Shown here: positions 10,331 to 32,000 of the stretch, piece after piece
How positions within the stretch are numbered: position 1 is the stretch's first letter
Layout: each line of letters begins with the position of its first letter
Position numbers and translations under genes: made by a program
Notes under the pieces: model-generated
Databases searched by the model: none
Seen by the model: only the letters and a program-made list of their open reading frames with translations
What the model was told of the DNA's origin: nothing
Assembly: GCA_016196885.1 (NCBI GenBank)
Contig: JACPWU010000003.1
Coordinates: forward strand, 30,001-62,000
Reading direction: 5' to 3'
Length of the DNA: 32,000 nt
Source: Chlamydiota bacterium
GTDB taxonomy: Bacteria; Auribacterota; JACPWU01

Positions 10331-10338
10331 GGAAGTGG

Positions 10339-10354: not shown

Positions 10355-10521
10355 TTAAGATGTAAAGCATTAGGGATAAAAAAAGAAGTGTTTTTTACTT
10401 TTCTGTTTCGAAAGTTGTCTTAATGGGTAGGAAGGTTGCTTTAATCGAGGAAATGCAGCTACTTGTGTAGCGCGTGGAGGTTAAAGGACTTTCTAATATG
10501 TGTAAAAAGGAGGAGAAAGAG

Positions 10522-11583: not shown

Positions 11584-11653
11584 GAGGGTGTAAAACTTCT
11601 TCTTTCTCTGTCCCCCGAAGATGGTATGTCGCGGGGGCGGGGAGGGAGGGGTT

Positions 11654-11669
11654 TTAAGTGCTTAAGTGC
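11654..11669. repeat. Tandem 8-mer ttaagtgc x2 downstream of paralogue 2
   Basis: Read directly. It is the partner of 10339-10354. Confidence 0.7.
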
Positions 11670-11706
11670 GTGGGTGTCTAGGTTATTATCATAAGCAAGT
11701 AGCGCT

Positions 11707-11802
11707 TGTCATCTCGAGGAGCAGTTTTTTGCGACGAGAGATCTTTGTCTTAGAATTAGAGCAAGATTTCTCCCCTTCGTTGCACTCAGGGTCGAAATGA
11801 CA
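11707..11802. repeat. MITE-like element (~96 bp) with imperfect terminal inverted repeats tgtcatctcgag / gtcgaaatgaca
   Basis: Termini match at 10 of 12 positions in inverted orientation. It lies in an intergenic spacer and contains no ORF. Confidence 0.5.
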
Positions 11803-11849
11803 ATGGCTTTAGGATATTTAAAGATTCAAAAAAGGAAAGAGGGTTTTTT

Positions 11850-12689: not shown

Positions 12690-12690
12690 G
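12669..12690. repeat. Heptamer array (gtcgtga) x3 that supplies the last codons and stop of the 11850-12689 gene
   Basis: gtcgtgagtcgtgagtcgtgag encodes VVSRES-stop. The same heptamer array occurs in frame in the giant ORF at 19021. Confidence 0.9.
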
Positions 12691-12700
12691 TGCTTTGCTT

Positions 12701-12736
12701 GTCATTGCGAGGAAGCTGTAGGCAGGCGAAGCAATC
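12701..12736. repeat. Short palindromic unit gtcattgcgagg ... cgaagcaatc
   Basis: The attgc/gcaat dyad with a gtcat terminus has the same style as the other gtcat-type units in this window. Confidence 0.5.
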
Positions 12737-12770
12737 TTGAGTTTTGGAGAGCATTCTGGAAGTTTGTTAT

Positions 12771-12848
12771 GTAGTCGCCCCATTTATGGGGCTGCCCGAT
12801 GAATCGGGCGACTACAAAAGAGGGCTGCCCGATGAATCGGGCGACTAC
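12771..12848. repeat. Two tandem hairpin units of the gtagtcgcc / gcccgat..atcgggc / ggcgactac family, as found in the long inverted repeats
   Basis: gtagtcgccccatttatggggctgcccgatgaatcgggcgactac, followed by gggctgcccgatgaatcgggcgactac. The building blocks are shared with 4520-4591 and 7510-7581. Confidence 0.8.
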
Positions 12849-12928
12849 AAAAAAAGCATGATGGGGAGAACTTTCATTGCATATGATGGTCTCGAATACG
12901 GGTTCGCAATGGCAGAGTGGTGGGATAG

Positions 12929-15900
12929 GTGATGAGTATGGATTTATCCTCTGAAACAAATGCTAAAAATTTTAAGGGTGTTTATGCCCTTTTGCCAGGG
13001 TTCTTTTTTTTTCTTTTTCTCTCCTTTTCTTCCCATTCTCTCTTTGCCTCTTTTGTAGATTCCGATTCTGACCGCATGGACGATGCATGGGAAGGTGCGC
13101 ATGGCCTTAATCCAAGCGATGCATCCGATGGAACAGTAGATTCAGATGGGGATGGGATCATGAATGATGAAGAGTATTTTACCAACCACGATCCCCATGC
13201 CCCCGATCCAACTCTGAGTGACTCAGAGTTGGTGGATCTTGCCGCGAGAAAGGCCTTTCTTTATTTCTGGGAGCAGGCGAAGGTTCCAAGCACGGGTGGA
13301 GTGACAGAGCCTATTTTGATTCCAGATCACTCTGATTTTAATGGGGGGAGTCCCGCTACCTATTACAGCATTGCGGCGATTGGATTTGGTTTAGCTGCAA
13401 TGGTTGTGGCCGATGACCGTGACTGGATAGATCATGTTTCTGCGTATAACCGAATTGATGCGACTTTAAAATTTTTTAGGAGTTTACAGACCAGCACAGA
13501 TGATCAGAAGGTCAAGCATGGTTATTTCTATCACTCTTATGATGTGAATGGAATTCGAACGTCTGGGAGTGAACTTTCAACGATGGATCATGCCATTTTT
13601 GTGGCGGGGGCTCTCTTAGCGGGCCAATATTATCGTGGGACTGAAATAAAGGATTTGGCTGACGAAATTTATTCTTCAACCGAGTGGAATTGGGCCTGGG
13701 ATGGGTCTTTTTTATATAGGGGCTGGGTCGAGGATGGCGGCCCTGTGGAAGGCGGAAGTTGGGTGGGAGGTAGCGCGAAATGGGACAGTTATGCCCAAGA
13801 GATTATTCTTCTTAACTTGGCCATTGGAAACCAAGGGGCGTATAACATTCCGCAAGTCGCTTGGTCTAACATTGCCCGACCTTTGGAACAATATGGTTCT
13901 TTTCCTTCTTATATTCATGTGGGGTCTCTTTATGCCCACCAGTATTCCCATCTTTTTTTGGATTTGAAGAGTCGGCCCGATGCCTTGGGCTATGATTATT
14001 TTGAAAATTCAAGAGTGGCCACAGAGGTCAATCGGCAGTTTGCGATAGATTTGAATTTAAAGGATCCTTTGAAATATGAAACTTATGGGGAAAATGTGTG
14101 GGGGCTTTCTGCAGCGAATGCCTCGAAGGGGTACCAATCTTTGGAGCCCATTCTTTCGACAGAGGATGAGGCTGTGATTGAGGCGTACAATGATTCTGGA
14201 ACGGTTGCGCCTTTTGCCCCCCTGGGTTCTTTACCTTTTACTCCAGAAGAGTCTCTCGGGGCATTGAGAGAAATGTATGAGAATCGAAATTCTTTCTTGA
14301 GTGCTCAGACAATTTGGGGACGTCACGGTTTTTTGAATGCATTTAATACCGGCACAGCTTCAGGAGGACAGAAACCCTATTTTAGCACGCAGGTGATAGG
14401 AATTGATTTGGGCCCGATTGTAGGAATGGCGGAAGATTACAGAACGGGTCTTTTGTGGAAATATTTTTTTAGATCGGCGATTGCCGAGTCGGGCATGGCC
14501 AACATGGGGTTCAGTACCGAGCCGGTCGAACCCCATGTTTTAAATTTTGACAGCGGGTCGGATCCCAACGATTTTGGGGGAGATTCGGGGGGGATTGGGG
14601 GGGGCGATGTTTCTTATGTGACGGATACGCCCGATGGATCGGAATTCTCTGCCCAGGTGAGTGGTTCAAATATCGGAGATGGGGCTTTCATGGGGCTTGC
14701 GGGGCATTCCATTCATCCCTGGGATGGATTTTCAATTTGGGTGAGGGCTTTGTCCGAGGGGGGGTCTTTAGAAGTCGGACTCAAAGATACAGATGGAAAT
14801 CAGTGGACGGTGTCGCTTGCAAGTTATCATCCTCAAGGGGCACTCACACAATCTTGGACGCAAGTGAAAATTCCTTTGGAGCCTTTTGTGGAGGCGGGGG
14901 TACGACTCACCCGTTTGGATGAAATCTTTTTTGTGTTTACTTCTAGTGGCGGCGTTATCCAAGTGGACGATGTTGGATTTTTGGAAGATGTATTTTCCCC
15001 GGATTCCCCACAAGATTTTAAGGCTCAATTTGTGACTCCCGATCGAGTCGAACTTTCTTGGCAAGAAAGTCCTTCTAAGGATGTGGTGGGTTATAAAATT
15101 TATCGCAAAAAGAGTTCTGGAAATTTTGAGGAATTAACGGCCAATGAGAATGGCTATGTTTATTTAGGAACTTCTTATACAGATACTGCGATTGATCCCT
15201 CTCAACAATACACCTATCGCGTGATCGCCCTTGACAATTCTCAAGATTCAGATGATTCGGATGATGGCTTGGAAAGTGAGCCAGCTGAAGATCAAGCCTA
15301 TACCTCAGATAAAGATGGGGATGGTTTGGATGATCAGGAGGAGGCAACTTTGGGGACTGATCCGAATAATTCCGACAGCGATGGAGATGGCGTGAGTGAT
15401 GGAGAGGAAGTGAATCAGAATGGGACGAATCCAAAAGACGCGGATACAGATGACGATGGTTTCACCGATGGCCAGGAGGCCTCGACAAATTCTGACCCTA
15501 AAGATCCAGAGAGCCAGCCAACCCAGATCACGATTACAGCGGATAACCGTTATGTCTTGTATGTGAATGGGGTCAAGGTGGGTGAGGATGACAATTGGAG
15601 TACGGTGGAAAAGTATGTTGTAGATTTGAAGCCGGGAGGAAATGTAGCGATTGAGGCGATAGACTCAGGGGGAATCGCAGGTTTGGCAGTGAATATTTCC
15701 AATGGGACTCAAGTGCAGGTTTCGAATTTTATTTGGCAATGTTCGCTTCAAGCTTCTTCAGGATGGGAGACCGAGGGCTTTGATCATTCGAGCTGGGTGG
15801 GGGCCACAGAACATTTTCAGGTGGGAGGAGGACCGTGGGGAAGGATGGACAGTTTCAATTCTAAGACCCGGTGGATTTGGTCATCGGATGCCTTAAAGGA

Positions 15901-17803: not shown

Positions 17804-17949
17804 GATATCTCTTTCTATCATAACCAAATCTCTTCCAATAGGTTAAATTCATTAAAAATCCTTCAAATAAATCATTTCTTTTTTGACCTTTTTCACCTCT
17901 GAAATGTCCTTATTTGTGAGTACTTTAAATCAGGTACTTATAGGCACTT

Positions 17950-20900
17950 ATGATAAATTCTTCACCTAAAAGGACCAGAGGGTTCCACCTCGGGTTGAAG
18001 TGTGTTTCCACACTGACCCTGATGGCCTTCTTTTTTACCTCCGTATGTGAAACTTCCCTTTTTGCGCAAGAAGGGTTGAAAGTTGGAAGTTGGAAGTTGG
18101 AAGGAAAGGAAAATAAATCCCCTCAGGTTTTTTCTTCCAACCTCAAACCTCCCACTTCCAACTTGCTTTCAAGCGTCTCTATTCCCTCCGTCAGAGGAGA
18201 TGTCCTTCAGCGTTTTCAAGGTAAAGACGATCGTTTGGTGATTCAACTTCAAGACGTGCATTGCCATTTCGAGGCGCAGTCTAATTCGGCCAAGATTATC
18301 AAAGGGTTAATGGATGAACATGGATCCCATGGGCTTCACATGGTGGCAGTCGAAGCAGCAGGCGAGCCTGTGGACACTTCTCTTTTGACTTCTTTCCCGG
18401 ATCCCAAACTCCGAAAAATGTTTGCCGATTATCTCATGAAAATCGGAAAAATTTCTGGAGCTGAATATCTTTCAATCATTCAAGACAAGCCCCTTCCCCT
18501 CGAGGGAATCGAGAACATGTGGAATTATTTTCGACATGTTGTGCAGTTTAATCAGGGTCAGGTGGTGAAGGAAAAGGCGGAACCGATTTTAAATAAAATT
18601 CAAAAGGCGATTTTAGAATTGCGTAAAAAAGTTTATTCCGCAGAGATGAGGAAGTTTCTGAATCAGTCTGAGGCTTATGAAAAGGGAGATATGGAGTTGG
18701 GGGAGTATATAAAACAGTTAAAAGTTGAAAGTTCGAAGTTGAAAGAAAAAGATAAAAACTCCTTGTCATCTTCCAACATCCAACTTTCAACATCCAACAT
18801 TCCTTCCTCCTCCAGCTATCCCAACATTTCTCTCATGCTCCAGATGAAGAAACTAGAGGACAAAATAGATCTCAAGCAAGTTGAAAAAGAAAGAGTCAAA
18901 CTTTTAGAAGATTTAAGCCACAAACTCGTCAAAGAAGAGATGGTGGAGCTGATGACGAAGAGTTTGTACTACAGACTCGAGAAGATGGATGCGTGGGAAT
19001 ATTATGAATATTTAAAGACTGTCGTGAGTCGTGAGTCGTTAGGGGTGAGGGGTCAGAATTCAACGTTAGAGAAAACTTATCCTAACCTTATGAAATACAT
19101 CGAAATGACAGAAATATTTCACGAGATCAAGAGTGATGAGCTTTTGAAGGAGTGTGAAAAGATATCGGAGGAAGTACAAGATAAGTTGTTAAAGACCAAA
19201 GAAGAAAAGGCGCTCAGGCAAATCGAAAAAGACTTTATTATTTTGAGAAACTTTTTTGAATTGGAGATGAAGAAGAGCGAGTTTCAGTATTATGTGGAGA
19301 ATAAGGAGAGGGTTTCGGCTGAGAATATAGTGGAAGGCTTAGAGAAGTTGGAGGGTCAAGGGTCAAGGGTCAAGGGTCAGGATAACTCCCCTCGGTCCCC
19401 TCTTAATTTAAGAGGGGAGGAAAAACAAAAACAAGAGAGAGAGCAAGTAGAGAGTTCCTCCCCTATTTTAAAAGCGGGGGAAAAGCAAAGGCAGGTAACG
19501 TTCTCTCCCCTTAGTTTAAGGGGAGATGGAGGGGTTACAAATGACGACATCACCTTCCTTGACTCTCATCTCAAATCCCTCGAACAATTCTATCGCTACT
19601 CAGACAATCGTGAAGAGGCGATGGTCCAGAACACGCTCCGGAAAATGAAAGAGAACAAGAGTCCGATTGCGATTTTGTATGCAGGAGGATTTCACACTGA
19701 TGGACTGAGCAAGCGTTTGGAGCAAGAAGGAGTGTCTTACGTCGTAGTTGCTCCGCGCATCACTCAATTCAAACTTAAGACCCCGTATTTATCCATTATC
19801 AAGAATGAGCCTTCGAAATTAGAGAAAATGTTGATGGATTTGAATAAAAAAGAAGGGTCCAACCTGGCTGCGATTTTGATTAGCATGAAGCCGGAGGAAT
19901 TAGAAAAAATTATTTCAGATTTTCAGCTTGCTGACACTGACCTCGTCACTGTTTGGATTCGCGATACGATTCGTTTGCTTCGTACTGATAGAACCATGGC
20001 TCTTTTGATTTTAAAAACCTTGATGCTAAAAGATCAGTTAAAAAATTTAAGTGCCTTGGCTCATGTGGGTGACAAGATTCAGGATTTGGAGAAAAGCTGG
20101 TTAAATGAATTCAAGAGGCTTTCGGGAGAAAATAATTTTAATTCAGAAGAAGTTGAAGTCATTGAATTTAAATTGGATCGAGATGTTGTGGTGAATGGCA
20201 ATACAATCACCCTTCAAGTTTTGATCAGTGGCAAACAATCTTTGACCGTGACTCTAAATGTTCATGAAGGCATCGAACAAATGATGAATCGTATCGAAGA
20301 TGCTTTTAAGCCTGTGGCTCTAATACCTCCGGCTTCAGGAGAAAAGGGGGAAGTAAAAAAGTCAGGAGTGCCGCCATGGGTAAAAGCAGTATTTTCTTTT
20401 TTTCTTGTTTTTTTAACTAAATCGCTTTCTGCGGCTCCGAGTGTTTTTGTCAAAGCCCCTCTTTTTGATCCAGGAATGGATTTGGTTGCCTTGCACAGTC
20501 ATTTTGCGATTTGGGGTTCGATGTGGACGTATGCAGCGGTCATTGCGATCCCGCTCGGATTGGTTTTTATGTTTTGGGCCTTGGGCAAGATTAAGTCTCG
20601 ATGGGTGGAGGCAAGAATAAGAGCGATTGTGGAAGAGGTGGAGCAACCGCAACTTCTTTCAGAAACGATTTCTTCAGGAACAGTTTCTTCCCGAGTTCAT
20701 CTTTTTGATTTTGAATTCGCTTCAGATATTCCTCAATCTGAAAGAGAGCGTGCCTCAGCATTTTTTCAGGATGTTCTAGGTGATGAGCTTCAAATGTGGG
20801 AAAGAAATTTGCTCCGTCAATATCCAGTTTTAGATTCAAGGGAATTGAGATTTCATGTTCGATTTGTAAATGAAACTCCATCTGAAAAATGGGCTCTGAA

Positions 20901-23900
20901 AATGGAAGAGGGAGGTCTGGTTGTTAATTTAGGGGCCTTTCTTTCTGCTAAGGGCGCAAAAGCAAATTTAAGGTCTTATTTTGAAAGACTGAAGGTGGAG
21001 CGTGAAAGAGATTTGTCTGGGCGCAGAGATTTGATTGCACTCCCTCAGCAAGTTTTGAAGGGAGACGGTAGACTTTTTGTTGATTATTCGAGCGGGATTC
21101 GAAAGGTGTTGGTCAGCCAAGAAAACGCAGGTTCTTTATGGAGATTGGCAGGGCAGATCAAGGGACATCCGCAAAGAGTCGTACCTTTGTTGGATCAATT
21201 GGAATCTCAGGCGGTGACAGCTGTTCTTTATGATAGAGAGGGTCAGCCCTTTTCGCTTTTGATCTATGTGCCTGGTTTTACAGATCAGGTCTACGACTGT
21301 CCCTTGATTCGGGACCGGACAAGATATGATGAACTTCTTTCGGTTTATCGTTCGCTCTCTTCTATTCCTTCAGTGGAAATGGTCAGGAGGAATGATGTTT
21401 CTGTAGAAGATGTGAAAGATCTTTTAGGGGACAGAGATCATGTTGAGTTTTTTGTGAGATGGGCTTCAAAGGCGGCAGAGAAGAAGCGTCCTTCTTTCTG
21501 GAATGTTTTGCGTGCTTTGGCATTGTGGATGACAAAGGGAGAGCGAGAACGATTTGATGAGATGCTGGAAAAATACTTTGGCACTTCCTGGTTGGGTCGG
21601 TTGATGGCAATGGGTTTTTGTCTCTTCATAGGGACTGCGTTCAGCGCCATCATCATTGGTTGTCTTGGTTCTCCGACGAAAGCTGATGCAGCTTATTTTG
21701 ATGTTTCGTCTCATGGGGGAACTCTTTCTGCTGAGGTTCAAAAAGCACCTTCTCAGAAAGGGGGAGACGTAGAAAGTGAGGGAGACATTCAGGCGGATAT
21801 CGAAAGATTAGAAAAGGGAATACAAGCTTTAAACGAGGAAAATGCTTCTGCGACCTCAGGCTCTGGCGCAAAAGAAGAGAAAGCACCTCCCGTAGAAGAA
21901 GTAAAAAAGACTGAAGGGGGAAAGAAGAAGGCCGAACCTGAATGGACGAAGAAAAAGAGAGAGGAGTATGAAAGAGATTTGGCAAAAGAGAGAGAGGCTT
22001 TTAAGAAAAAGGCAGGTGCACCTCATTCAGAAAATCTTACGCTTCAGCCTACAGAAAATCTTACTGACTTAAAAGGAAAAATACAGGCGATAGAAGAACA
22101 AAAAAGACTTGAAGAGTTAACCATTGATACCCTCGAATATTTAAGTGCCCAGCTTCGAGTGGAAACCCTGAATCAACAAGCCGCAAGTCTTGAGCAGGAA
22201 ATCGTGGCCTTAAAAGATCAGTTGAATCAGGAAGAAAAACTTTCTCCGACTGATAAAGAGAGTCTTCAGAAAAGACTTCATGGAAAAGAAGAAAAGTTTC
22301 AGACATGTCAACAGTCTCTTCAGGAATTAAACGCTGAGATAAATGCCATGAGGCATGATTCAAAAATCGAAGAGGGTTTTAAAGAAAAATCAGATGAAGA
22401 ATTGGAGAAAGCCATGAAAGGGCATCTTAAGGAATATTTTATTCTTCATGTCAGATTACAACGTTATCAAGCAATGATGCAAGATCTCTTGGGTACAAAA
22501 AAGAGAGATTCCGGTGTTCAAGCGCAATCCAGTTCCTCTGCCAAAGTTCAATTAATTCCTTCTTCTCAAGATTTAAAACCTGCTCAGGGTTCTTCCCCCC
22601 AGAGTTTGCGTGAGTCTATTAAATATTTTATTGAGAGAGGGGTGAAACATTTTGATGAGATGAGTCAGGATGATGATGCGCTGGCCCAGTATCTTTATGA
22701 TCAATATCGTTTGAAGGGCAGGGGTGAGTTAAAAGGAGAAGTTAGGATTGGGTGGCAGAATTATTATTCTTATGGGACTGCTGGATCTGATTCCTATGAA
22801 GCTCAATCGGAAGAGGATGTGGTGGCGACTTTGTTTTTCGACAAGACGATTGATAATGCAAAAAAAGAGCAAATGAAATCAGCCTTTTGGCGTTTAGAAG
22901 CTCAACATCGTATGCAGCTTCAGGGACAATATGACGCCTGGGCTGGGATTTATCAATTGACGGGAGAAGTGCTGAAGGCAAAAGCCAATATTGAAGTTCA
23001 GAAAAAATTTGAGACAGAGGCTAAATCTTTGGTGGATCAAATGCAGGAGCGTTTCTTGAAACCCCGCGAGATGGATGAGGCTCAAGGGGGGGACCCCAGG
23101 ATTTTTCAAACGCGATACTTGAATCGTTGGCATGAAGCTCAGGCCAGCCGTATTCAGGCTGAAGAAGCTTATGAGACAGCTTGCTTAAGACTAAAAGGGC
23201 TTTCCGGAATGGCTGTTGATGATGAGATTCAAATACCCGGCTCTTTGGAGGAGTGGAGTGTATTTGATATTGAATCTCTTTTTAAAGAGATTTCTGAGGA
23301 ATTAAAAAATGAGGGAGTGAATGCAAAGTTTATGGATCAAAGCGTTCAAATTAGCACTGCTTTGGTGAATGAGGCTGCCTTTTGGAAAAAGGAATTGGAC
23401 GAGAATGACGTTTCGCTTGAGATGAAATTGGGAGCAGGCTTACAGGGGCGATGGAACATGGATACTTCGGGTGGTTTTGAATGGCCGTTTAATCCCTTTG
23501 TTTCTGGAGAATTTGAGTTAAAAATTTCTCTCCTCGATTGTGTTGCAAAGGCTCAAGGAAGGGTGGGTGAAGTCATTAATCAAATGGCGGTTCTGAGGAT
23601 GGATGAGGCAAAAAAAGGTTTGTACTTTAAGTATTTAAATGCCCAGGCTGAGCTGGAGGCAGCCCAGAGAATTTTGAAGGTTTTAGAGAAGGTTTTAGAG
23701 GTTGAGTTGAAAGAAATGAGTGTGGAGCCTCCGGTGCTGCAAAGTGATTTGGAGCTTGAGTGGGACCGGATTGGCGTGAGTCGGAATTTGGAGATCGCTC
23801 GCAATGAGGCTTTGGCAAGAATTGCCAGTGCCCGACTCAAAATGACGGGGTACCGCGCTCAGATACCTCCTGAAGAGTTGAAAAAAGTAGACGCGCTCGT

Positions 23901-26900
23901 TGATTTTGATCAATTGTTCGGCCCTGATTTTGGGGCTTTGAATGTTTCAGCTTTTCTCAAAGCTTTGGCCACAGAATGGGTGGGTGGTGAGGTGACGGAT
24001 TTGACTTCTGTTCCGTGGGAAAAAATTTTCCCATCCGACATGGCTGAACGGATGAAAGGAATAAAGGATTATGATCATGATTTAAGAATAGACGCCAATC
24101 AAGATCTCCTGAAAAAAATCATAGAAAAAATGAATGAATTGATTCAACAGGAGGATTTTCTTTTTCGTCATCCCTCTATAGGTTCTTTAAGTTTCGATGG
24201 TTCTGCTATGCAATTTTTAAATATTCTGATTCAGGATGGAGTGCTGAATGCTCAGGACTACCATCCAAAACAAGATTTGACTCCAGAAGAAAAATTCCAA
24301 ATTTATACTTTGAATCGTTTGGTTTTAGAAGAGAAATATCCTGAAGTTTTTAAAGTTCAACTTTCTTTTCCTATCGCAGCCCAGAAGGCTGTTCAAGGTT
24401 CGGGCGCTTTAAGGGGACAAGAGTTGGAGGAACAAGCTCATACCGCACGAGGGAAAGTAGCTTTTAACAGTCGGATTCCGGTTGTTCAGGGAGGGCTGAA
24501 TGTCAATTTTAATCTGGGAACTTATGGGGATCCGATTGGATACCGTTTTGATCAGGGCCAACCGTTCATTGGGGACAATCCTCACGCCCATTTGACTTTG
24601 ACGGGGGGCACCTCTCTTTGGTTGGCGGCGACTGGACCTCTCCCTATCTTTGGAAAAACGTCCGAACAAAGGGCTCATGTGAAGGCTGAAAAGGGATGGA
24701 TTCAAGCGCGTGAAGAGGAAATTACAAATCAATTGATGGAGGGTTTGTATAACGTCTTTAAAAATGTAGCATTGGCTCAATCGGATCTTCAGAGACTTCA
24801 AAAAGAACTTGCAGAATTAAGGGCGTTTAAAGAATTGCTTGAGAGAAAACACACAGAGGTGCCTTTGACTGAAGAGCAATACCTTTCTCAAGCTCAAAAG
24901 GTTTGGCTCAGAATCATGGAAAAGAGAATTGAAATTAACCGCATGGAAAGCACCCTTGAAGGTTATCGGATAGATGTTTTGAGTCGAATGGGTGATGAAC
25001 ATTTAAAAGGTCAATTTCTAGATTGGCCGAAAGAGCCGTCTGAGCAGAGGGCCAGAATGATTCAGATGGGGAAAGAGGTTGCTTCTGGAATAATTCCTCA
25101 ATCTAATTTGAATTTGGAAACCGCACAGGTGAATGTAGCGAGAGAGGTTTTGGGCAATACCAGTGCTGCTCCTACAATCACTTGGACTGTCGGCGCAGCA
25201 GCAGGACCCTCTTTCCCTGAACTTTTCAGAGCTGAGGATCAAAATGAGGCCTGGAGGGTGCTTCCGTTTCTTGCGGGTTGGGTGGGTATTCATGGGACAT
25301 TGCCGCAGCCTGGCCTGAAAAAAGCTCAAGTGAATGCAGCACAACAAAAAGTTTTTGAGGAAGAGGGAGAACTGGAACGGTTAAAACAGGAACAAACAGC
25401 GGAGGAGCTTTTGGACTGGAGAGAGTATACCCGTTTAGAAGTTCAGGTAGATGAAATATCTGAATTGTTAGCGGAGGCAAAATCCCTCTATCAGGATATT
25501 CAGGAAGATTTAAAAATTCCGGGACAGTGGGGGAAGCAGTATCAGCCTGAGAACCTTTTGAGGGTGATGAATTTAATTTCGATGGTTGAAGAGGAATGGA
25601 CTCGTGTGGAGTGGTCCCTCAATGGTTTTAAGCATGTGAATTTAAGAAAGTTGGGTGTGGATGAAAGTAATTTCGAAGAGAGAAAAGCTCAAGCTCTTGC
25701 AAGGCTTGAAAAGGGTGAGGTGCCTCAGACAGGAGTTGCATCTAGTTCTTCGCAAAATCTTGCTCAGGCGCGGTCTCAAACGACTCTCAATCCTCAAGGC
25801 CCGCATTCTTTGATTCAAGTAGCCCAAAGAGCCATTCTCTACCACCCCAATGTGGAAAGCGCTTATTTAAAGGTTCAGGCGCTTGAGGCGAAGAAGAAAG
25901 AGGCTCAAGCCCATAAGTGGCCAGCAGTGACTTTATCTGGGGGTGCGAGGAGTGATTCTCCCAAGCTGGCGAATGAACGCTATCCCTCTATTTATAATAG
26001 CGGATATGCTGGATATGAGCCGGGGATTGAAGGACAAAAACCAGAATGGCCGCCAAAAGTTCAGGCGAGTGGTTCGGCGACAGGCAATGTTCGTTTTTGG
26101 GATGATTCAGAGGTCAGAGAAGTAGAGGCAGAATTAGGGGCGGCTCGAGCAGACTTAATGCAAGCTGTTTTAAATGCTTTTTATGAAAGCGTTCTTCTTT
26201 ACTATGATCTTGTTTTTGAAATGGAAAAAGCCAAAGCTTACTCCCAAGATTCAGAACATAAATATGCCTTGGCGCGGTCCATGTGGTTGAGAGAAAGACT
26301 TTTGTTGGCCTCCCAGATTGATACCCATGAAGTGGGTATTGAAGCCTTAACTTCTCTTTTAAGGCTTTCACCCTCCGGAATGGGGCAGGCTCAAAATCGT
26401 GCCAGAAGTTTGTTGATGATTGATTTTGATTTGGTCCCGTCAGAAGGCCTGCCTGATATTTCTTCTTTGGTGGCTCAAATGCATTCGGTTCTTTCTACGG
26501 GAACAGGCAGTACGGAAATTGAAAATCTTTTAAAAGAATTATGTGCTCGAGATCCAAAGTCGGTTATTTTTCAGGCCTTGGGAGAGAAGGAAAGAGCGGC
26601 CGGGCAGGCGGTTCGTCGCGATCGTCTGGGAACCTGGCAATTGGTTTTTGATTCCCCGGATTGGCGAAAAGGTCAGGTGGAAGCGATGCTGACGTGGACA
26701 AAAGTTTTTTTGGATGGCGGAAAGAAAGAATCAGCGATTCAGTTGCATAAAAGATTGGAAAAGAAGGCAAAAAGAGAGGCAAAAGAATATGAGAGACAAC
26801 AACTTCTCGATGTGGCGCAGGCTTTCAAGGAAGTTCTTTCTCAAGCAGGGCTTTTAGAGGTTGAGCTAGAAAAAATTAAAGTTTCTGAGAAGCAAGTTGA

Positions 26901-29900
26901 GCTTTTAATGGAGCGTTTAGATGTGCCTTCCAACGATCAAGCAAATCCTCATGATCTTAAAACACACGCGTCCGATGTGCAGGACTCTTTTAGCAAATTG
27001 CTTGAGGCCTGGACGATTTTAAGAGATGTTCAAGTGAGTTCTCAAACCGCCGTGGCTGAGATGGAAAGAAGGTTTTGGACACTCAAGAAAACCCTTGCCC
27101 TGGCCCAGGCCCATGGTTCTCCAGATCCTGAACGCAAGAGATATCTGGATGAGGTACAAGCCTTTCTCGATTCAACGCATGTGGCTGAAGTATCTGCAAC
27201 TGCGCCTGTACAGGTCGAGCCTGCGACAAAGCTTTCGACAGAATTAAGAGAGGGATTGAAAGCGCAAAAGGCTTTGGATAAAAAGTTAGAGGAAGGGACA
27301 GAGGAGCCGAGAGTTCCTGTCTCCAGACCCGTCGAGCTTCCCTCTCGTGTGGGAGTTCAAAGGAATCAAGTTCCTGCTTTTAAGAGTCTGGTTCCAGAAC
27401 CGCCTTTGGAATATCAAGCTCGTGACGAGACGTTGCCGGAAGCCAAAAAAGAGAACCATCGTGCAGAGCCAAAACCAGAGGAGCCTCCGAAACCCAATGT
27501 GGGAGAGGAGGAACATACGTTTTTGAATCCGGAGGGCTGGGTGTGGAGGTCTATGCGTTGGTGTAGGGGATGGAAAATAGGACGGTCTATTTTAAATTGG
27601 TTAGGAGAAGATGAGGTTGTAGCTACTTTGGAACGTCTTCATCTTCTTGAAAATGGACAACAATTGCTGCGTCGTCAAAGAGAAATTGAGGTGGATGATG
27701 CCAGTCGTATTAAAGAATTGAAAAAAAAGGGAACCCAGGCTCAGGAGAGAAAAGCAAGGGAAGAACTTCGTGAAATACGAACTCGACTTGAAGAAGAACG
27801 TGAACAGATTTTTGAAGAGCACTATGGGCTTTTTCTTCACACGGTGGATTACACTCAGGCTCATCATGACAAGCTCGAGGAGAGAACGAAAACAGAGCCC
27901 TATATTCTTTGGCGGTCTTTTATTGATCTTCCCATGTTTCCAACTTACCCGGATCCGATTGAGTTGAAAAATGTGCCCTGGATTGTTCAGAAGATGAGGA
28001 ATGCCATGTCTGCAGGTCATTTTTCAGGGATTGATCCTCGTATTATTACGGAAAACGGTTTGAAATGGGTTTTCAACACGTATGGTCAAATTCGGGGTCG
28101 ATCTCCCCAGGACATGAATGATTATTTTGATGCGTGGACTCTTTTGGGATCACATATAGATCAGAAATTGGCTTCTTTGAGAAAGGAGTTGGGTTTAGAA
28201 AATTCAGATGAAAGGGAATGGAATGATTGGCTGAATGGGACTTTTTTCCCGAATGGTTTTGCCTCGACTTTTTCGGGTTTACTCGGGATTGAGCGTTCTT
28301 CAGCTCTGACAGATCAGGAACTTGGAAATCCTCATGCAGGTATCAGGCGCTTGGGCTATTTCAGTGCGTTATCTTCTTTGGCTGTGAAGATGCGACACGA
28401 AAATCCAAAAGATTCCATGGAGACGATGATAGGAAAAATGGTTGCCCCCGGAGGCGATTTAGATCACTCGTTTGACTGGATGAAGACCCGGGCTCTTCAT
28501 TTTGGTCAGGGGACGCTTTCTCTTCAAAGCGACGAGAAATTTATCAAGGATGATCTTCATTATCAGGAAAGTATTTTTGTGGATGAATTCTCTCAATTGA
28601 AAGAACGAAAATTCGCCCAGGCGGTCATTGATCATACCGATGCGGCAAGAATTCTATATTCCGTGATGTATAGCTCTGACTTTGGAATTGTGGATAAGAA
28701 TGGGAGCGGTTTGGAACATGCAGACCTTGAGACTTTAAGACGTAAGCTCTCCATGTCAGATGACTATGAGAGTCAAAGCTTTGTTTTGTCTATTGCCAGC
28801 GTTGCCATGGCACATCATATTTCTCCTGAAAAAATGCTTGATTTAGCCGGTAAGGCCCGCCGTGTGATGGGACCCGAAATTGCAAATATTTATGCGTCTC
28901 GCCTGACGCGTGAGGCCTTTTTGACAGAACCTTATTTTGCTCAGGATGCTGGTAAATTAAGACATCTTGTTCGAGCTCAAAAATTTCATAAGGAGAAGGC
29001 TCAGGCTTTGCTTGCTCAAGGCGATACTGCAATGGCTGCAGAAAATGAGAAAATGGCCAAGGAATATCGAGAACGAGCACAGATAGAAGAGCAGGCTCTC
29101 AAGAAACGTTTGGTGCGTTCCCTTCTCATGTATTGGACAAACTGGGCTGTTGAATTTTTGCTCGAGCGTGAAAAAGATCCCAAGGTTGATCCCATTGAAG
29201 AGTTAAAGAAATTTTTTAGATTGTTACCCCAATATCAGGCAGTGATGAGCAATGATCCGATGGGGCTTTATCCCGATCGGTCTTTTGACATCATGAACCC
29301 CAGGGATTCTGGAGTTCTGGTTTATTGGACGAAAATAGGTGCCATTCGGGGAATGGAGGCCCAGGAGCTTCGAACCCTTCACCATCGCATGGTGTCCATT
29401 GGAAGCATGGATGTTTTTCGGCGTGTATTGAAGCTTTTTGACATTCATGCGGGTAACGAGTTAGATCCAGAAAATAGAGATCAGATGGGAGCGGCCATGA
29501 TGTATGCCGTTAGAGCAAATAAATGGAATTGGGGAGATTCAGACGTGATTCGCTACTTAGAAAATGTAGAGTGGATTTTGAAGAATCAAGAGATGAAGCT
29601 CACCATGATTGAACAGTGGTATTTGGGGGGGGAGGTAGAGAAGGCAGAACGAATGGCTGCCTTTTTTTGGAAGGACATGTCTTCGTTGGAAGAAGTTTTG
29701 ACCGCACGAGCTGGGCGACCCGATCAGGAGTGGCGTGTTTCAAATGATCAATTACGAATGCTTTGGACGGCGGGTCATGAAAAGGCTCAGGACATTGATC
29801 TCAAATATGGAAAAGACTATAAGAAGGCCTTGCTTTATTCAATGGTTAGTTTGGTGGATGAATTTATGGTCCGGTGGGGGGTTGATCAAGTTTCCTTGGT

Positions 29901-32000
29901 TCAATTGGAGCAAGGCGTCAATCGATTTCTGGATCGTGTAAAGACTGAATGGAAAAAGGCAGAGATTTCCTCCGATAAACTTTTCTGGCAGAGAATGAAT
30001 CGCCAGGATGTGGCGTTGGCTTTTGTCATCACATTGAGACGGCAGGGATTGTCCACAGAAAATGCCTTTGCGCATCTTCAAGATCTTCAACGAGCCGTGG
30101 AACGGAGTCAATCTAGTTTAAACTATTTAGAATCATTGCTAGGTTCTGAGACTTCAAATCAGGTACGTGAAGCGGTTGAACGAGGAGATCGACAGGCTTT
30201 ACTTCTCTTGAAAAGAGAGATTATGGATGGATCGAAGGTTTGTATTGATCCTAATGTCGATCGATATTTAATATCCCTTCTGCAGTTTATTTCAAGTGAG
30301 GGTGCTGTCCATATGGACCTCATGCTAGATAAGATGGCCGAAGTGCTCAAGGCCCATCGTAAATCTCATCTTTCTTTACAGACCGATCTTGTCCCAGGTC
30401 TTCAGATTTGGCAGGCAGAAATGTCGGTTTATGGCTGGGGGGAACTTGAGAAGGTTTTTGGGAAAGACATCCTTCAACAAATTCAAGAGGCTGTGAGGCT
30501 TGACAAGCCAGAAGATGTTGCGAAAATTACACTTTCTCCTGACATTCGTCACCGGGCCGAAGAGGCCATGGTGGGATCCAGCCGAGGAAGGCCGGTGGAG
30601 CAATATATTCGATATGTCCTTCTGATTTTAGAAATCGAGAAGGCTCCCTTGACACTCCCCTTTCATGAAGTGACTTTTTTTGGAGAAGATTTTTTTAAGC
30701 GAGGCGCCTCTCCTACTTTCATTTTGGATTATTTTAAGGCCAGAACTTACCTAAGATCCAGTTATTCTCTTTATCATCGTGCCGCGGGCAATTTTGAAAG
30801 TTTGGAGCCGTTTATTGAGGAAGTGGATCGCGAGAATAAAACGATCATGGGTTCACAGAAAGAGAGAAGGCTTTTTGTCCAACCTCTAACCCCCCCCGAG
30901 AAATTGTCACCGGGGGAAGAGGGGTCCTATCTTTATCGCTTCGAAATGGGACTCGATTCCTATTTTGACATGGGTAATCATGATATTCAGATGTCGGCCT
31001 TGATTGTTCGCGGCGAACGAGAGATGTTATGGAAATTTGAAGAAATGAGGGTGAAGCATATTCCTGAGCTTAGGGAACAGTTGGCTGAGGCAAGAGAGCG
31101 CGGAGATGAAAAATTAATCGAGCAACTCGAAAAGGCTTTAGAGAAATGGAAAGAGGCTCGGATCGTGCCGTTTACTTATCGGGAAGTAAAAGAATTTCTC
31201 GAAGCAATTAAAAAGGGGGAAATGGATAAGCATGAGATTGATCTATTTTTTGAAACCGCTCTTTATTTTCAAACCAAACTTTTGGATTCGGGTCTCGTGA
31301 CGCTGGACTACTTTAATGGTGTGTCCTATTTAGTGAATCATTTTTGGAACGAACCCGGCCTTTTTGAGTGGCTGATGCAGTATCGTACGGAAACTAAAAT
31401 TGTTGAATTGTGGACCCAAGAGCCTGACAAAAAGGATTTGGGGCCGGAGGGAAACCGCTGGAAAATCTATTCACTTTTGGGACGCATGATTGCTCAAGGA
31501 ACTCCGTCTAGCGAATTGGTTGAGCGCCTGGTGAATCTTGATTTAGAACTTTCAGGGAAAGGGGTTCCCAATGATCGGTCAAAAACTCGGATGAAAGAGG
31601 GCATTGAAGCATTTCAAATTTTGAGGGATGTGATGATAGAAATGTTGGGGCCGAGCCTTCATAATCAAGAAAAGAAGACGGCCTTTCGCCGTTTGATTGA
31701 GGAATTGCTTGAGAGCCCATCTTCTTTAGGTCCATCTTTAGAAAATTGGCTTTGGGGTGTTCTGGAAAGCCGTATTGGAATCACGGAGGCTCAAGATTGG
31801 AAATTAAATAAAGAACGACTCTCTCAAGTTAGAAAGGATGATGAAAAGACAAAGGCGGATACGGCTGATCGTGCAAATGCCATTATGAGAGAACGTCCCA
31901 ACCTTTTAATGAAGACAGATCTTAAAAAATCTGATTTGCGTCTTTTAGGAATGGATCCAAAAACGGCGGATGAGTTCTGGCAATATTTAACTCAATCAGG
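17950..32000 (+). CDS. 5' part (4683 codons, still open at the window end) of a giant secreted/envelope protein
   Basis: Hand translation of the frame starting at ATG 17950 (in-frame TAG at 17941-17943 just upstream) gives no stop up to base 31998. The track contains no ORF in this frame across these 14 kb, and fragments of 60 aa or more would be listed if stops existed. It contains only short antisense ORFs. N-terminus MINSSPKRTRGFHLGLKCVSTLTLMAFFFTSVCETSLFA|QE is signal-peptide-like. No clear SD was seen. Confidence 0.9.
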   Translation, partial: MINSSPKRTRGFHLGLKCVSTLTLMAFFFTSVCETSLFAQEGLKVGSWKLEGKENKSPQVFSSNLKPPTSNLLSSVSIPSVRGDVLQRFQGKDDRLVIQLQDVHCHFEAQSNSAKIIKGLMDEHGSHGLHMVAVEAAGEPVDTSLLTSFPDPKLRKMFADYLMKIGKISGAEYLSIIQDKPLPLEGIENMWNYFRHVVQFNQGQVVKEKAEPILNKIQKAILELRKKVYSAEMRKFLNQSEAYEKGDMELGEYIKQLKVESSKLKEKDKNSLSSSNIQLSTSNIPSSSSYPNISLMLQMKKLEDKIDLKQVEKERVKLLEDLSHKLVKEEMVELMTKSLYYRLEKMDAWEYYEYLKTVVSRESLGVRGQNSTLEKTYPNLMKYIEMTEIFHEIKSDELLKECEKISEEVQDKLLKTKEEKALRQIEKDFIILRNFFELEMKKSEFQYYVENKERVSAENIVEGLEKLEGQGSRVKGQDNSPRSPLNLRGEEKQKQEREQVESSSPILKAGEKQRQVTFSPLSLRGDGGVTNDDITFLDSHLKSLEQFYRYSDNREEAMVQNTLRKMKENKSPIAILYAGGFHTDGLSKRLEQEGVSYVVVAPRITQFKLKTPYLSIIKNEPSKLEKMLMDLNKKEGSNLAAILISMKPEELEKIISDFQLADTDLVTVWIRDTIRLLRTDRTMALLILKTLMLKDQLKNLSALAHVGDKIQDLEKSWLNEFKRLSGENNFNSEEVEVIEFKLDRDVVVNGNTITLQVLISGKQSLTVTLNVHEGIEQMMNRIEDAFKPVALIPPASGEKGEVKKSGVPPWVKAVFSFFLVFLTKSLSAAPSVFVKAPLFDPGMDLVALHSHFAIWGSMWTYAAVIAIPLGLVFMFWALGKIKSRWVEARIRAIVEEVEQPQLLSETISSGTVSSRVHLFDFEFASDIPQSERERASAFFQDVLGDELQMWERNLLRQYPVLDSRELRFHVRFVNETPSEKWALKMEEGGLVVNLGAFLSAKGAKANLRSYFERLKVERERDLSGRRDLIALPQQVLKGDGRLFVDYSSGIRKVLVSQENAGSLWRLAGQIKGHPQRVVPLLDQLESQAVTAVLYDREGQPFSLLIYVPGFTDQVYDCPLIRDRTRYDELLSVYRSLSSIPSVEMVRRNDVSVEDVKDLLGDRDHVEFFVRWASKAAEKKRPSFWNVLRALALWMTKGERERFDEMLEKYFGTSWLGRLMAMGFCLFIGTAFSAIIIGCLGSPTKADAAYFDVSSHGGTLSAEVQKAPSQKGGDVESEGDIQADIERLEKGIQALNEENASATSGSGAKEEKAPPVEEVKKTEGGKKKAEPEWTKKKREEYERDLAKEREAFKKKAGAPHSENLTLQPTENLTDLKGKIQAIEEQKRLEELTIDTLEYLSAQLRVETLNQQAASLEQEIVALKDQLNQEEKLSPTDKESLQKRLHGKEEKFQTCQQSLQELNAEINAMRHDSKIEEGFKEKSDEELEKAMKGHLKEYFILHVRLQRYQAMMQDLLGTKKRDSGVQAQSSSSAKVQLIPSSQDLKPAQGSSPQSLRESIKYFIERGVKHFDEMSQDDDALAQYLYDQYRLKGRGELKGEVRIGWQNYYSYGTAGSDSYEAQSEEDVVATLFFDKTIDNAKKEQMKSAFWRLEAQHRMQLQGQYDAWAGIYQLTGEVLKAKANIEVQKKFETEAKSLVDQMQERFLKPREMDEAQGGDPRIFQTRYLNRWHEAQASRIQAEEAYETACLRLKGLSGMAVDDEIQIPGSLEEWSVFDIESLFKEISEELKNEGVNAKFMDQSVQISTALVNEAAFWKKELDENDVSLEMKLGAGLQGRWNMDTSGGFEWPFNPFVSGEFELKISLLDCVAKAQGRVGEVINQMAVLRMDEAKKGLYFKYLNAQAELEAAQRILKVLEKVLEVELKEMSVEPPVLQSDLELEWDRIGVSRNLEIARNEALARIASARLKMTGYRAQIPPEELKKVDALVDFDQLFGPDFGALNVSAFLKALATEWVGGEVTDLTSVPWEKIFPSDMAERMKGIKDYDHDLRIDANQDLLKKIIEKMNELIQQEDFLFRHPSIGSLSFDGSAMQFLNILIQDGVLNAQDYHPKQDLTPEEKFQIYTLNRLVLEEKYPEVFKVQLSFPIAAQKAVQGSGALRGQELEEQAHTARGKVAFNSRIPVVQGGLNVNFNLGTYGDPIGYRFDQGQPFIGDNPHAHLTLTGGTSLWLAATGPLPIFGKTSEQRAHVKAEKGWIQAREEEITNQLMEGLYNVFKNVALAQSDLQRLQKELAELRAFKELLERKHTEVPLTEEQYLSQAQKVWLRIMEKRIEINRMESTLEGYRIDVLSRMGDEHLKGQFLDWPKEPSEQRARMIQMGKEVASGIIPQSNLNLETAQVNVAREVLGNTSAAPTITWTVGAAAGPSFPELFRAEDQNEAWRVLPFLAGWVGIHGTLPQPGLKKAQVNAAQQKVFEEEGELERLKQEQTAEELLDWREYTRLEVQVDEISELLAEAKSLYQDIQEDLKIPGQWGKQYQPENLLRVMNLISMVEEEWTRVEWSLNGFKHVNLRKLGVDESNFEERKAQALARLEKGEVPQTGVASSSSQNLAQARSQTTLNPQGPHSLIQVAQRAILYHPNVESAYLKVQALEAKKKEAQAHKWPAVTLSGGARSDSPKLANERYPSIYNSGYAGYEPGIEGQKPEWPPKVQASGSATGNVRFWDDSEVREVEAELGAARADLMQAVLNAFYESVLLYYDLVFEMEKAKAYSQDSEHKYALARSMWLRERLLLASQIDTHEVGIEALTSLLRLSPSGMGQAQNRARSLLMIDFDLVPSEGLPDISSLVAQMHSVLSTGTGSTEIENLLKELCARDPKSVIFQALGEKERAAGQAVRRDRLGTWQLVFDSPDWRKGQVEAMLTWTKVFLDGGKKESAIQLHKRLEKKAKREAKEYERQQLLDVAQAFKEVLSQAGLLEVELEKIKVSEKQVELLMERLDVPSNDQANPHDLKTHASDVQDSFSKLLEAWTILRDVQVSSQTAVAEMERRFWTLKKTLALAQAHGSPDPERKRYLDEVQAFLDSTHVAEVSATAPVQVEPATKLSTELREGLKAQKALDKKLEEGTEEPRVPVSRPVELPSRVGVQRNQVPAFKSLVPEPPLEYQARDETLPEAKKENHRAEPKPEEPPKPNVGEEEHTFLNPEGWVWRSMRWCRGWKIGRSILNWLGEDEVVATLERLHLLENGQQLLRRQREIEVDDASRIKELKKKGTQAQERKAREELREIRTRLEEEREQIFEEHYGLFLHTVDYTQAHHDKLEERTKTEPYILWRSFIDLPMFPTYPDPIELKNVPWIVQKMRNAMSAGHFSGIDPRIITENGLKWVFNTYGQIRGRSPQDMNDYFDAWTLLGSHIDQKLASLRKELGLENSDEREWNDWLNGTFFPNGFASTFSGLLGIERSSALTDQELGNPHAGIRRLGYFSALSSLAVKMRHENPKDSMETMIGKMVAPGGDLDHSFDWMKTRALHFGQGTLSLQSDEKFIKDDLHYQESIFVDEFSQLKERKFAQAVIDHTDAARILYSVMYSSDFGIVDKNGSGLEHADLETLRRKLSMSDDYESQSFVLSIASVAMAHHISPEKMLDLAGKARRVMGPEIANIYASRLTREAFLTEPYFAQDAGKLRHLVRAQKFHKEKAQALLAQGDTAMAAENEKMAKEYRERAQIEEQALKKRLVRSLLMYWTNWAVEFLLEREKDPKVDPIEELKKFFRLLPQYQAVMSNDPMGLYPDRSFDIMNPRDSGVLVYWTKIGAIRGMEAQELRTLHHRMVSIGSMDVFRRVLKLFDIHAGNELDPENRDQMGAAMMYAVRANKWNWGDSDVIRYLENVEWILKNQEMKLTMIEQWYLGGEVEKAERMAAFFWKDMSSLEEVLTARAGRPDQEWRVSNDQLRMLWTAGHEKAQDIDLKYGKDYKKALLYSMVSLVDEFMVRWGVDQVSLVQLEQGVNRFLDRVKTEWKKAEISSDKLFWQRMNRQDVALAFVITLRRQGLSTENAFAHLQDLQRAVERSQSSLNYLESLLGSETSNQVREAVERGDRQALLLLKREIMDGSKVCIDPNVDRYLISLLQFISSEGAVHMDLMLDKMAEVLKAHRKSHLSLQTDLVPGLQIWQAEMSVYGWGELEKVFGKDILQQIQEAVRLDKPEDVAKITLSPDIRHRAEEAMVGSSRGRPVEQYIRYVLLILEIEKAPLTLPFHEVTFFGEDFFKRGASPTFILDYFKARTYLRSSYSLYHRAAGNFESLEPFIEEVDRENKTIMGSQKERRLFVQPLTPPEKLSPGEEGSYLYRFEMGLDSYFDMGNHDIQMSALIVRGEREMLWKFEEMRVKHIPELREQLAEARERGDEKLIEQLEKALEKWKEARIVPFTYREVKEFLEAIKKGEMDKHEIDLFFETALYFQTKLLDSGLVTLDYFNGVSYLVNHFWNEPGLFEWLMQYRTETKIVELWTQEPDKKDLGPEGNRWKIYSLLGRMIAQGTPSSELVERLVNLDLELSGKGVPNDRSKTRMKEGIEAFQILRDVMIEMLGPSLHNQEKKTAFRRLIEELLESPSSLGPSLENWLWGVLESRIGITEAQDWKLNKERLSQVRKDDEKTKADTADRANAIMRERPNLLMKTDLKKSDLRLLGMDPKTADEFWQYLTQS
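18075..18162. repeat. Inverted pair of 4-unit heptamer arrays (gttgaaa, then gttggaa x3 / ttccaac ctcaaac ctcccac ttccaac) in frame inside the giant ORF
   Basis: Arrays at 18075-18102 and 18135-18162 are separated by 32 nt. Translated as LKVGSWKLEGKENKSPQVFSSNLKPPTSN. Confidence 0.85.
18717..18798. repeat. Second inverted pair of 4-unit heptamer arrays (gttaaaa gttgaaa gttcgaa gttgaaa / ttccaac atccaac tttcaac atccaac) in frame in the giant ORF
   Basis: Arrays at 18717-18744 and 18771-18798 are separated by 26 nt. Translated as LKVESSKLKEKDKNSLSSSNIQLSTSN. Confidence 0.85.
19021..19055. repeat. Five tandem heptamers (gtcgtga x2, gtcgtta, ggggtga, ggggtca) in frame in the giant ORF
   Basis: Read directly. 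Translated as VVSRESLGVRGQ. Confidence 0.85.
19353..19380. repeat. Heptamer array gggtcaa x3 plus gggtcag in frame in the giant ORF
   Basis: Read directly. Translated as (E)GQGSRVKGQ. Confidence 0.9.
19397..19525. repeat. Three short hairpin units of one family inside the giant ORF
   Basis: cccctcttaatttaagagggg (19397-19417) and ctccccttagtttaaggggag (19505-19525) are palindromic. cctcccctattttaaaagcggggg (about 19458-19481) is an imperfect palindrome. Translated as SPLNLRGE, SSPILKAGE and SPLSLRGD. Confidence 0.75.
22603..27120 (+). other. Six tandem TolC / outer-membrane-factor (OEP)-like repeats, equal to three TolC-protomer equivalents in one chain (domain of the giant ORF)
   Basis: The best unit is 25800-27120. 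It reads LIQVAQRAILYHPNVESAYLKVQALEAKKKEAQAHKWPAVTLSGG ... GNVRFWDDSEVREVEAELGAARADLMQAVLNAFYESVLLYYDLV. It then reads LLKELCARDPKSVIFQALGEKERAAGQAVRRDRLGTWQLVF ... MLTWTKVFLDGGKKESAIQLHKRLEKKAKREAKEYERQQLLDVAQAF. Four earlier units show the same helix, strand, strand, long-helix, helix pattern, starting near 22603, 23272, 24375 and 25020. Confidence 0.5.

Follow-up and report, generated by a model that had tools for sequence, protein, structure and literature searches.

The giant gene and its extent

The stretch of DNA considered here (32,000 nucleotides of contig JACPWU010000003.1, assembly GCA_016196885.1, positions 30,001 to 62,000 of the forward strand; hereafter the window) holds parts of two very large genes, as the original prediction had proposed from the letters alone. 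The larger of the two begins at position 17950 and runs off the right edge of the window, and its product carries a TolC-like module and is, in the interpretation that we favour, a membrane-anchored envelope protein with an outer-membrane duct of its own. An in-frame TAG (17941-17943) is followed on the forward strand by an open frame extending over 17944-31998, with an ATG at 17950-17952. Translation from this ATG yields 4,683 residues, beginning with MINSSPKRTRGF and closing with EFWQYLTQS, in agreement with the termini quoted earlier; a search for an in-frame stop between 17950 and 31998 recovered none, and the final two bases of the window (GG) form the beginning of the following codon, given as G in the original prediction. 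Read in the remaining five frames, this stretch has 164-329 stops per frame.

17950-31998, forward strand: giant gene, first 4,683 codons (no stop, gene call of 9,014 amino acids (aa), coding-type pattern of guanine plus cytosine (GC) content)

A near-identical contig in GenBank, JACOUD010000054.1 (86,830 bp; assembly GCA_016178005.1, a metagenome-assembled genome (MAG) labelled Chlamydiota), reaches beyond the edge of the window. In this contig the giant gene is internal, at record positions of about 47825-74914, and is called as a single 9,014-aa product, which supports a single gene cut by the window edge and places its end near the window-equivalent position 45039. The GenBank call starts at a TTG equivalent to window position 17995, 15 codons downstream of the ATG at 17950, and the gene of about 27 kb accordingly comprises 9,014 codons when counted from the TTG or 9,029 when counted from the ATG. 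The window thus covers about 52% of it, with about 4,346 further residues encoded past the edge. With this length the product falls into the descriptive class of huge bacterial proteins of >5,000 aa (PMC11573180).

The part of the gene in the window occupies 14,051 of the 32,000 bases (43.9%), and yet this 44% appeared empty in the program-made list of open reading frames (ORFs) that accompanied the sequence: no forward-strand ORF is listed there, and the only entries are antisense ORFs of up to 139 aa. The cause that had been suspected is borne out by the list's own description, according to which ORFs running off an end go unlisted, and the giant ORF is not closed within the window. Lists restricted to closed ORFs hence hide exactly the largest genes.

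An open frame of this kind might in principle be an artefact, i.e. an assembly chimera, a pseudogene in decay or non-coding sequence that is open by chance. The source is a metagenome, no homologue was recovered, and a difference between the two contigs in the adjoining upstream gene demonstrates that assembly errors do happen at this locus. The window and JACOUD010000054.1 are 100% identical over 14815-27803 (about 13 kb) and differ by one single-nucleotide polymorphism and by 229 extra nucleotides in the window at 14586-14814. With the 229 nucleotides the upstream gene, coding for glycoamylase, fn3, TSP3 and PA14 domains, is one ORF of 1,624 aa, while in their absence it is frameshifted and called as two products of 566 and 996 aa; the difference probably reflects an assembly deletion in the GenBank contig, or alternatively a polymorphism in the population. 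Against an artefact in the giant gene itself stands, in the first place, the length of the open frame: with a stop probability of 0.063 per codon, as given by the base composition of the window, the log10 probability of encountering no stop in 4,683 codons is -132.6 (~1e-133). GC content by codon position (0.54/0.35/0.41) agrees with that of the other genes in the window and remains gene-like and constant across every 2-kb slice. Furthermore, the open frame extends to 9,014 codons in the GenBank contig with which the window shares the 13 kb of identity, no long direct or inverted repeats that could cause false joins are present inside the giant gene, and both GC content and GC skew are uniform along the sequence. 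In light of these coding statistics, the base-for-base match, the lack of long repeats and the uniform composition, a chimeric join, about which the original prediction had voiced a caution, or a pseudogene is unlikely, and the artefact explanation as a whole is close to refuted and in our judgement hardly credible. Thus, the locus contains one genuine protein-coding gene of about 27 kb from an uncultured bacterium labelled Chlamydiota in GenBank. Exact matches of two small neighbouring proteins lead to JACOUD010000054.1. The neighbouring proteins are likewise named 'Chlamydiae/Chlamydiota bacterium' in GenBank, with two accessions each that correspond to two MAGs and a longest contig of 105 kb, and the toxin-antitoxin genes of the window are also found on Logan contigs from two sequencing runs. 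One and the same population is thus represented in both GenBank MAGs and in the assemblies of the two runs.

Two heptanucleotide tracts of about four copies each are present in the 5' part of the giant ORF, namely GTTGGAA at 18075-18103 and a perfect AGGGTCA tract at 19352-19379. Gain or loss of a single unit in these tracts would shift the frame, and it is conceivable that the giant gene undergoes phase variation by a slipped-strand mechanism.

The TolC-like module

Domain and family annotation of the giant product covers aa 1-4683, the part in the window; for the whole 9,014-aa product no Pfam match is recorded in the gene table of the GenBank contig. Sequence profile analysis recovered a single Pfam family above threshold, namely OEP (PF02321), the TolC repeat. 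When the protein was scanned in slices of 650 aa the OEP matches were confined to two slices spanning aa 1801-3050, and the other helix-rich slices gave none. In the region aa 1585-3075, long helices follow each of six hairpin-like segments that are non-helical and rich in Gly and aromatic residues. Six consecutive segments picked at the positions of these hairpins, 200-370 aa apart, all match OEP, with E-values of 0.38, 0.72, 0.005, 0.02, 9e-6 and 1e-7 for R1 to R6, respectively. Taken in pairs they form three units, each of which corresponds in its extent to one TolC protomer (the Pfam gathering score for OEP is 22 bits, and E-values are corrected for 24,736 families):

22702-24339, forward strand: unit 1, TolC-protomer equivalent, aa 1585-2130 (R1 and R2), enlarged at its end by an additional stretch of about 150 aa; top Pfam match OEP (E 0.011, 16 bits), weak
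24340-25779, forward strand: unit 2, TolC-protomer equivalent, aa 2131-2610 (R3 and R4); OEP with E 2.3e-4 and 21.5 bits in two stretches, and 22.6 bits in another slice, borderline
25780-27174, forward strand: unit 3, TolC-protomer equivalent, aa 2611-3075 (R5 and R6); OEP with E 4e-14 and 53.3 bits in two stretches, well supported

Unit 3 hence passes the gathering score, unit 2 lies at its border and unit 1 falls below it. The reversed sequences of all three units, used as a control, gave no OEP match. Since the question concerns one family only, the E-values make units 1 and 2 look more marginal than they are, even though both still fall below the curated thresholds: asked for this single family out of the 24,736, the P-values are about 4e-7, 9e-9 and 2e-18 for units 1, 2 and 3. 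The TolC family model of NCBIfam, TIGR01844, also matches unit 3 (27.5 bits, E 1.5e-6), a score far short of its cutoff of 225 bits, and this is the best that any of the three units attains towards a full-length match with a curated model of the outer membrane factors (OMFs). A local hidden Markov model was built from a reference alignment of 10 proteobacterial OMF sequences (E. coli TolC, CusC and eight plasmid-borne OMFs), which was also used in hhalign comparisons. Within unit 3 it produced weak co-linear matches at 2620-2666, where the canonical N-terminal 'L..A...NP.L..A' helix leads into the first strand, and at 2908-2991, at the positions of the second repeat; in units 1 and 2 its matches are local and not significant (E ~0.3). 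By direct reading, the strand-to-helix junction motif of TolC (LPIFDGG...A..V..A type) is recognisable in every repeat: TLFFDKTIDNAKK in R1, ISLLDCVAKAQGRV in R2, LPIFGKTSEQRAHV in R3, LPQPGLKKAQV in R4, VRFWDDSEVREV in R5 and KVFLDGGKKESAI in R6. The three units are co-linear in alignment, with 28% identity between unit 3 and unit 2.

These observations are consistent with all six OEP repeats being genuine, which we regard as the somewhat better supported outcome, and with the giant product being, rather probably, a membrane-anchored envelope protein equipped with its own TolC-like duct, possibly one of single-chain, pseudo-trimeric construction. Some of the results given in this and the following two paragraphs weigh against that interpretation. 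The curated thresholds are passed by unit 3 alone, with unit 1 reaching only 16 bits; NCBIfam models recover nothing in units 1 and 2; the pairwise hhalign comparisons of the units are not significant; and the 10-sequence OMF profile gives weak local matches only. In view of these, unit 3 alone might be a true TolC-like protomer, with units 1 and 2 being degenerate or unrelated helical segments, in which case the channel would be a conventional homotrimer, a single barrel from which three chains of 9,014 aa would hang. This alternative is favoured by the wide margin by which unit 3 exceeds the Pfam gathering score and by its match to TIGR01844, neither of which holds for the sub-threshold or borderline units 1 and 2. 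However, OEP is still the top family for both of these units and disappears upon reversal, the spacing, the junction motifs and the co-linear alignment fit six repeats, and OEP is absent from the remainder of this helix-rich protein. We therefore consider a channel formed by unit 3 alone to be unlikely, while still the foremost competitor of a six-repeat module.

A further possibility is that the likeness to OEP is convergent or spurious, and that the product is a giant helical or coiled-coil scaffold of the surface or periplasm, or an adhesin, without any channel. OEP is a helix-rich family prone to weak matches, most of the protein is unannotated helix, and searches of the PDB with sequences and profiles found no TolC. 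The structure models are unusable in this regard: AlphaFold2 yielded a predicted local distance difference test (pLDDT) score of 37 for aa 1581-2780 with no alignment and of 48 for aa 2611-3075 with a 3-row alignment, no useful alignment being available to it because no homologues could be collected, and Foldseek with the better model retrieved generic long-helix proteins only. In these low-confidence models non-helical stretches alternate with helices of 45-67 residues, as in TolC, which does not constitute independent evidence. Nevertheless, two curated libraries match unit 3 (Pfam with 53 bits in two stretches, and TIGR01844), no OEP match arises from the reversed sequences, alignment places the N-terminal OMF motif in register, and the non-helical Gly- and aromatic-rich hairpin segments are placed where the strands of TolC are expected. 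A protein devoid of a channel accordingly appears very unlikely.

Searches for relatives likewise lend no help to the TolC-like interpretation. Word-indexed protein searches with aa 3201-4683, 1551-3083 and 2611-3077 returned no homologue even at E <= 10, and degenerate-peptide locus searches with aa 3685-4683 found no relatives in GTDB representative genomes and JGI metagenomes. An exact-DNA search with the last 53 nucleotides of the window gave 0 matches in the same two collections. An exhaustive phmmer search with aa 1881-3080 against 1.84 billion representatives also gave 0 matches, a weak negative in that the protein itself is absent from the libraries: the 9,014-aa product is present in the gene-position table, yet neither protein search engine returned it as a match to itself, and the proteins of its neighbours are in the collection. 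Giant and end-truncated products thus seem to be missing from, or under-represented in, the protein libraries, a gap that skews negative homology searches with giant genes and makes such genes look like orphans by construction. For this reason the orphan status of the giant protein is not established. Finally, no genes for a periplasmic adaptor (HlyD/MFP) or an inner-membrane transporter are found in window positions 1-17803, as might have accompanied a TolC-type channel.

Protein layout, gene neighbourhood and proposed architecture

Outside the TolC-like module the translated part of the protein can be divided into the following segments, among which the signal peptide is read from the translation by inspection, the charged stretch and the linker from composition, and the sidedness of the others from the predicted topology:

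17950-18066, forward strand: signal-peptide-like N-terminus, aa 1-39, its n-region rich in K/R and followed by the hydrophobic STLTLMAFFFTSV and by SLFA|QE
18067-20520, forward strand: unannotated region, aa 40-857, predicted extracytoplasmic; no Pfam, NCBIfam or PDB match
20521-20592, forward strand: transmembrane (TM) helix 1, aa 858-881 (Kyte-Doolittle 19-mer 2.05 at aa 863-881), followed by the K/R-rich GKIKSRWVEARIR
20593-21594, forward strand: unannotated inter-TM domain, aa 882-1215 (about 335 aa), predicted cytoplasmic by the positive-inside rule
21595-21669, forward strand: TM helix 2, aa 1216-1240 (Kyte-Doolittle 2.28, 19-mer at aa 1218-1236)
21787-22629, forward strand: charged coiled-coil-like stretch, aa 1280-1560, with weak SMC-like coiled-coil matches only
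27175-27549, forward strand: linker, aa 3076-3200, holding the sole proline-rich stretch of the 4,683 aa (about 3120-3195)
27550-31998, forward strand: helix-rich region without detectable relatives, aa 3201-4683 (>1,480 aa), no matches in searches

The K/R-rich flanks of both TM helices point toward the segment between them, from which we infer that aa 40-857 are extracytoplasmic, aa 882-1215 cytoplasmic and the remainder of the protein extracytoplasmic. The proline-rich stretch lies directly after the sixth OEP repeat. No internal repeats were detected by self-BLASTP within the 4,683 aa, and scans of the giant gene with PADLOC, PHROGs, Rfam and for tRNAs gave no match; a phage or defence origin was dropped as nothing matched. 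A resemblance of the N-terminal region to a TIKI/ChaN-type domain is supported by no search and is not claimed here.

Upstream of the giant gene are found, in order, a gene for a 6,016-aa product, a toxin-antitoxin island, two paralogous secreted acidic proteins, a secreted 279-aa protein and the secreted 1,624-aa protein introduced above. The two largest of these are:

2-4435, forward strand: second giant gene, C-terminal 1,477 aa; its full product has 6,016 aa in the GenBank contig and includes an intein (PF14890)
12929-17803, forward strand: secreted 1,624-aa protein with, by Pfam and NCBIfam, Glycoamylase, fn3, TSP3 and four PA14/rhamnosidase-N-like modules

It was the left-edge ORF in the first of these lines that had been suspected to belong to a second very large gene, and the 6,016-aa product of which it forms the C-terminus agrees with this; residues 905-958 of this fragment also show a weak motif of the P-loop/STAND-like NTPase kind. 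The toxin-antitoxin island encodes PemK-like, PIN/VapC, HEPN/nucleotidyltransferase, PIN_3 and helix-turn-helix proteins. Part of it is flanked by inverted repeat arms of about 170 nucleotides (4467-4645 and 7466-7634; 98-99% complementary), between which lie the PemK-like and PIN/VapC genes, the HEPN and nucleotidyltransferase genes and the antitoxin upstream of PIN_3; this part may be an invertible or mobile cassette. An intergenic hairpin motif of 31 nucleotides, GGGCTGCCCGATGAATCGGGCGACTACAAAA, occurs in four copies, at 4565-4595, at 7555-7585 and, as two in tandem upstream of the glycoamylase gene, at 12789-12852. It has no match in Rfam and could be a REP-like (repetitive extragenic palindromic) element or a terminator. 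The paralogous secreted proteins, of 530 aa (8738-10330) and 353 aa (10522-11583), share an N-terminal Cys-containing module (DGN.SD.PGEDCY..IQ.SGE.EGY), and both bear highly acidic, Asp-rich, calcium-binding-like tails; neither protein matches a family. The 279-aa protein (11850-12689) possesses a signal peptide and is beta-rich; its only match is a faint one to the archaeal pilin model UpsA (E 0.07), and a role as chaperone- or pilin-like partner to the secreted neighbours is possible. The 18 kb that precede the giant gene contain neither a type II secretion locus nor one resembling type IV pili.

The layout of the giant protein and its OEP repeats suggest a potential mechanism. The product would be Sec-exported and anchored by its membrane helices in the cell envelope. 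From the N-terminus, the signal-peptide-like start would be followed by about 800 extracytoplasmic residues, by two inner-membrane helices around a cytoplasmic loop domain of about 335 aa, and thereafter by a periplasmic coiled coil, the TolC-type outer-membrane channel module, the proline-rich linker and thousands of residues of unknown fold. The six OEP repeats of the channel module would amount to three TolC-protomer equivalents per chain, such that one molecule could close a 12-stranded barrel and a 12-helix tunnel that would otherwise need a homotrimer, and the inner-membrane helices and the channel together would tether the molecule to both membranes. In functional terms the module may serve as a built-in exit duct or as an outer-membrane anchor through which material is displayed or exported at the surface, possibly including the protein's own C-terminal part; the proline-rich linker and the residues following it could remain periplasmic or, more speculatively, pass through the duct to the surface. 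When in contact with a host or prey cell, the protein may also cooperate with the secreted glycan-active and calcium-binding-like proteins encoded nearby; for this role there is no more than analogy, namely with the giant ORFs found in other bacteria of the Planctomycetes-Verrucomicrobia-Chlamydiae (PVC) group and with the glycan-related nature of the secreted neighbours.

Comparison with known systems

TolC-type channels are the textbook case of obligate homotrimers of small stand-alone proteins. If the architecture proposed here is true, three protomer equivalents in one natural chain, as part of a 1-MDa protein with inner-membrane anchors, would constitute a new design of trans-envelope conduit, and would furnish a testable hypothesis for how at least one class of bacterial giant surface proteins is brought to the outer membrane or retained there. 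A canonical OMF carries two repeats in a free-standing protein of about 450-500 aa and assembles as a homotrimer (PMC8277102, PMC7396618). The giant protein has in common with the OMFs that serve tripartite efflux and type I secretion (TolC, OprM, CusC) the tandem OEP repeats, the succession of a putative beta-hairpin and long helices in each of them, and the LPIFDGG-like junction. In contrast to them, its module is embedded at aa 1585-3075 of a 9,014-aa chain with inner-membrane helices and has up to six repeats, whereas the protomer of an OMF stands alone, at about 450-500 aa, and has a signal peptide or lipobox to itself; adaptor and transporter genes are not nearby upstream, and its similarity to the OMFs is very low (27.5 bits with TIGR01844, for which the cutoff is 225). 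Within the limited collection covered, the literature yielded no account of an OMF that unites several protomers in a single chain, and a literature search on the accession returned nothing. The gene itself is already in GenBank, and giant genes as such are known; what appears to be new is the architecture, with the single-chain TolC-like duct being plausible but not demonstrated.

More than 41,000 proteins of >5,000 aa have been catalogued in UniProt, with the PVC phyla enriched among their sources (PMC11573180). The giant ORFs of Omnitrophota, which belong to this group, have been described as showing little conservation, as being membrane-associated and as having genes for secretion and carbohydrate-active functions on their flanks (bioRxiv 10.1101/2023.11.21.568195; PMC10066038; bioRxiv 10.64898/2026.06.07.730766), and TolC is unmentioned in these three studies. 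The Archaeovorin and Dockerin giants of Omnitrophota resemble the present protein in their great length, in being mostly unannotated, poorly conserved and membrane-associated, in their origin from uncultured PVC-group bacteria and in the adjoining secreted carbohydrate-active or carbohydrate-binding proteins, and contact with a host or prey has been proposed for the Omnitrophota proteins. West-Roberts et al. delimit them by a minimum of 30,000 aa and Seymour et al. by an ORF of >20 kb within a genome of Omnitrophota, whereas the product described here is much shorter at 9,014 aa and its 27-kb ORF comes from a source labelled Chlamydiota in GenBank. Moreover, the SecA_DEAD, dockerin, C39 and glycosyl-hydrolase domains are not found in its aa 1-4683, where only two strong TM helices are present. 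Membership among the Archaeovorin and Dockerin giants was rejected on the absence of these defining domains and of the secretion-locus context. The origin of the gene in an uncultured PVC-group (Chlamydiota-labelled) MAG of groundwater type adds to the link between huge proteins and a host-associated lifestyle.

Type I-secreted giant adhesins such as LapA (with LapE), MpIBP and SiiE are retained in a TolC-like pore, which is a polypeptide distinct from the adhesin. They are built from tandem Ig-like and RTX repeats. The present protein is similar in that a surface protein of the megadalton class would be coupled to a TolC-type duct, but here the duct would lie in the same chain. An adhesin of the RTX or Ig-repeat kind was itself considered and rejected, with no internal repeats in aa 1-4683 by self-BLASTP, no long repeats in the DNA of the gene within the window and no HemolysinCabind or Big match in aa 1-4683.

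In type V autotransporters the passenger and the outer-membrane pore are combined in one polypeptide, the pore being a C-terminal 12-stranded porin-like barrel (PF03797). The analogy is one of mechanism only. PF03797 is not detected in aa 1-4683, and the pore proposed here is of the TolC type. The most far-reaching version of our proposal, to which we assign a low probability, would have a single polypeptide span both membranes and form a complete pseudo-trimeric six-repeat duct, with the linker feeding the protein's own remaining ~5,800 residues through it to the cell surface in the manner of a TolC-based 'autotransporter'. If true, such self-contained TolC-based secretion of a giant surface protein would represent a design so far undescribed.

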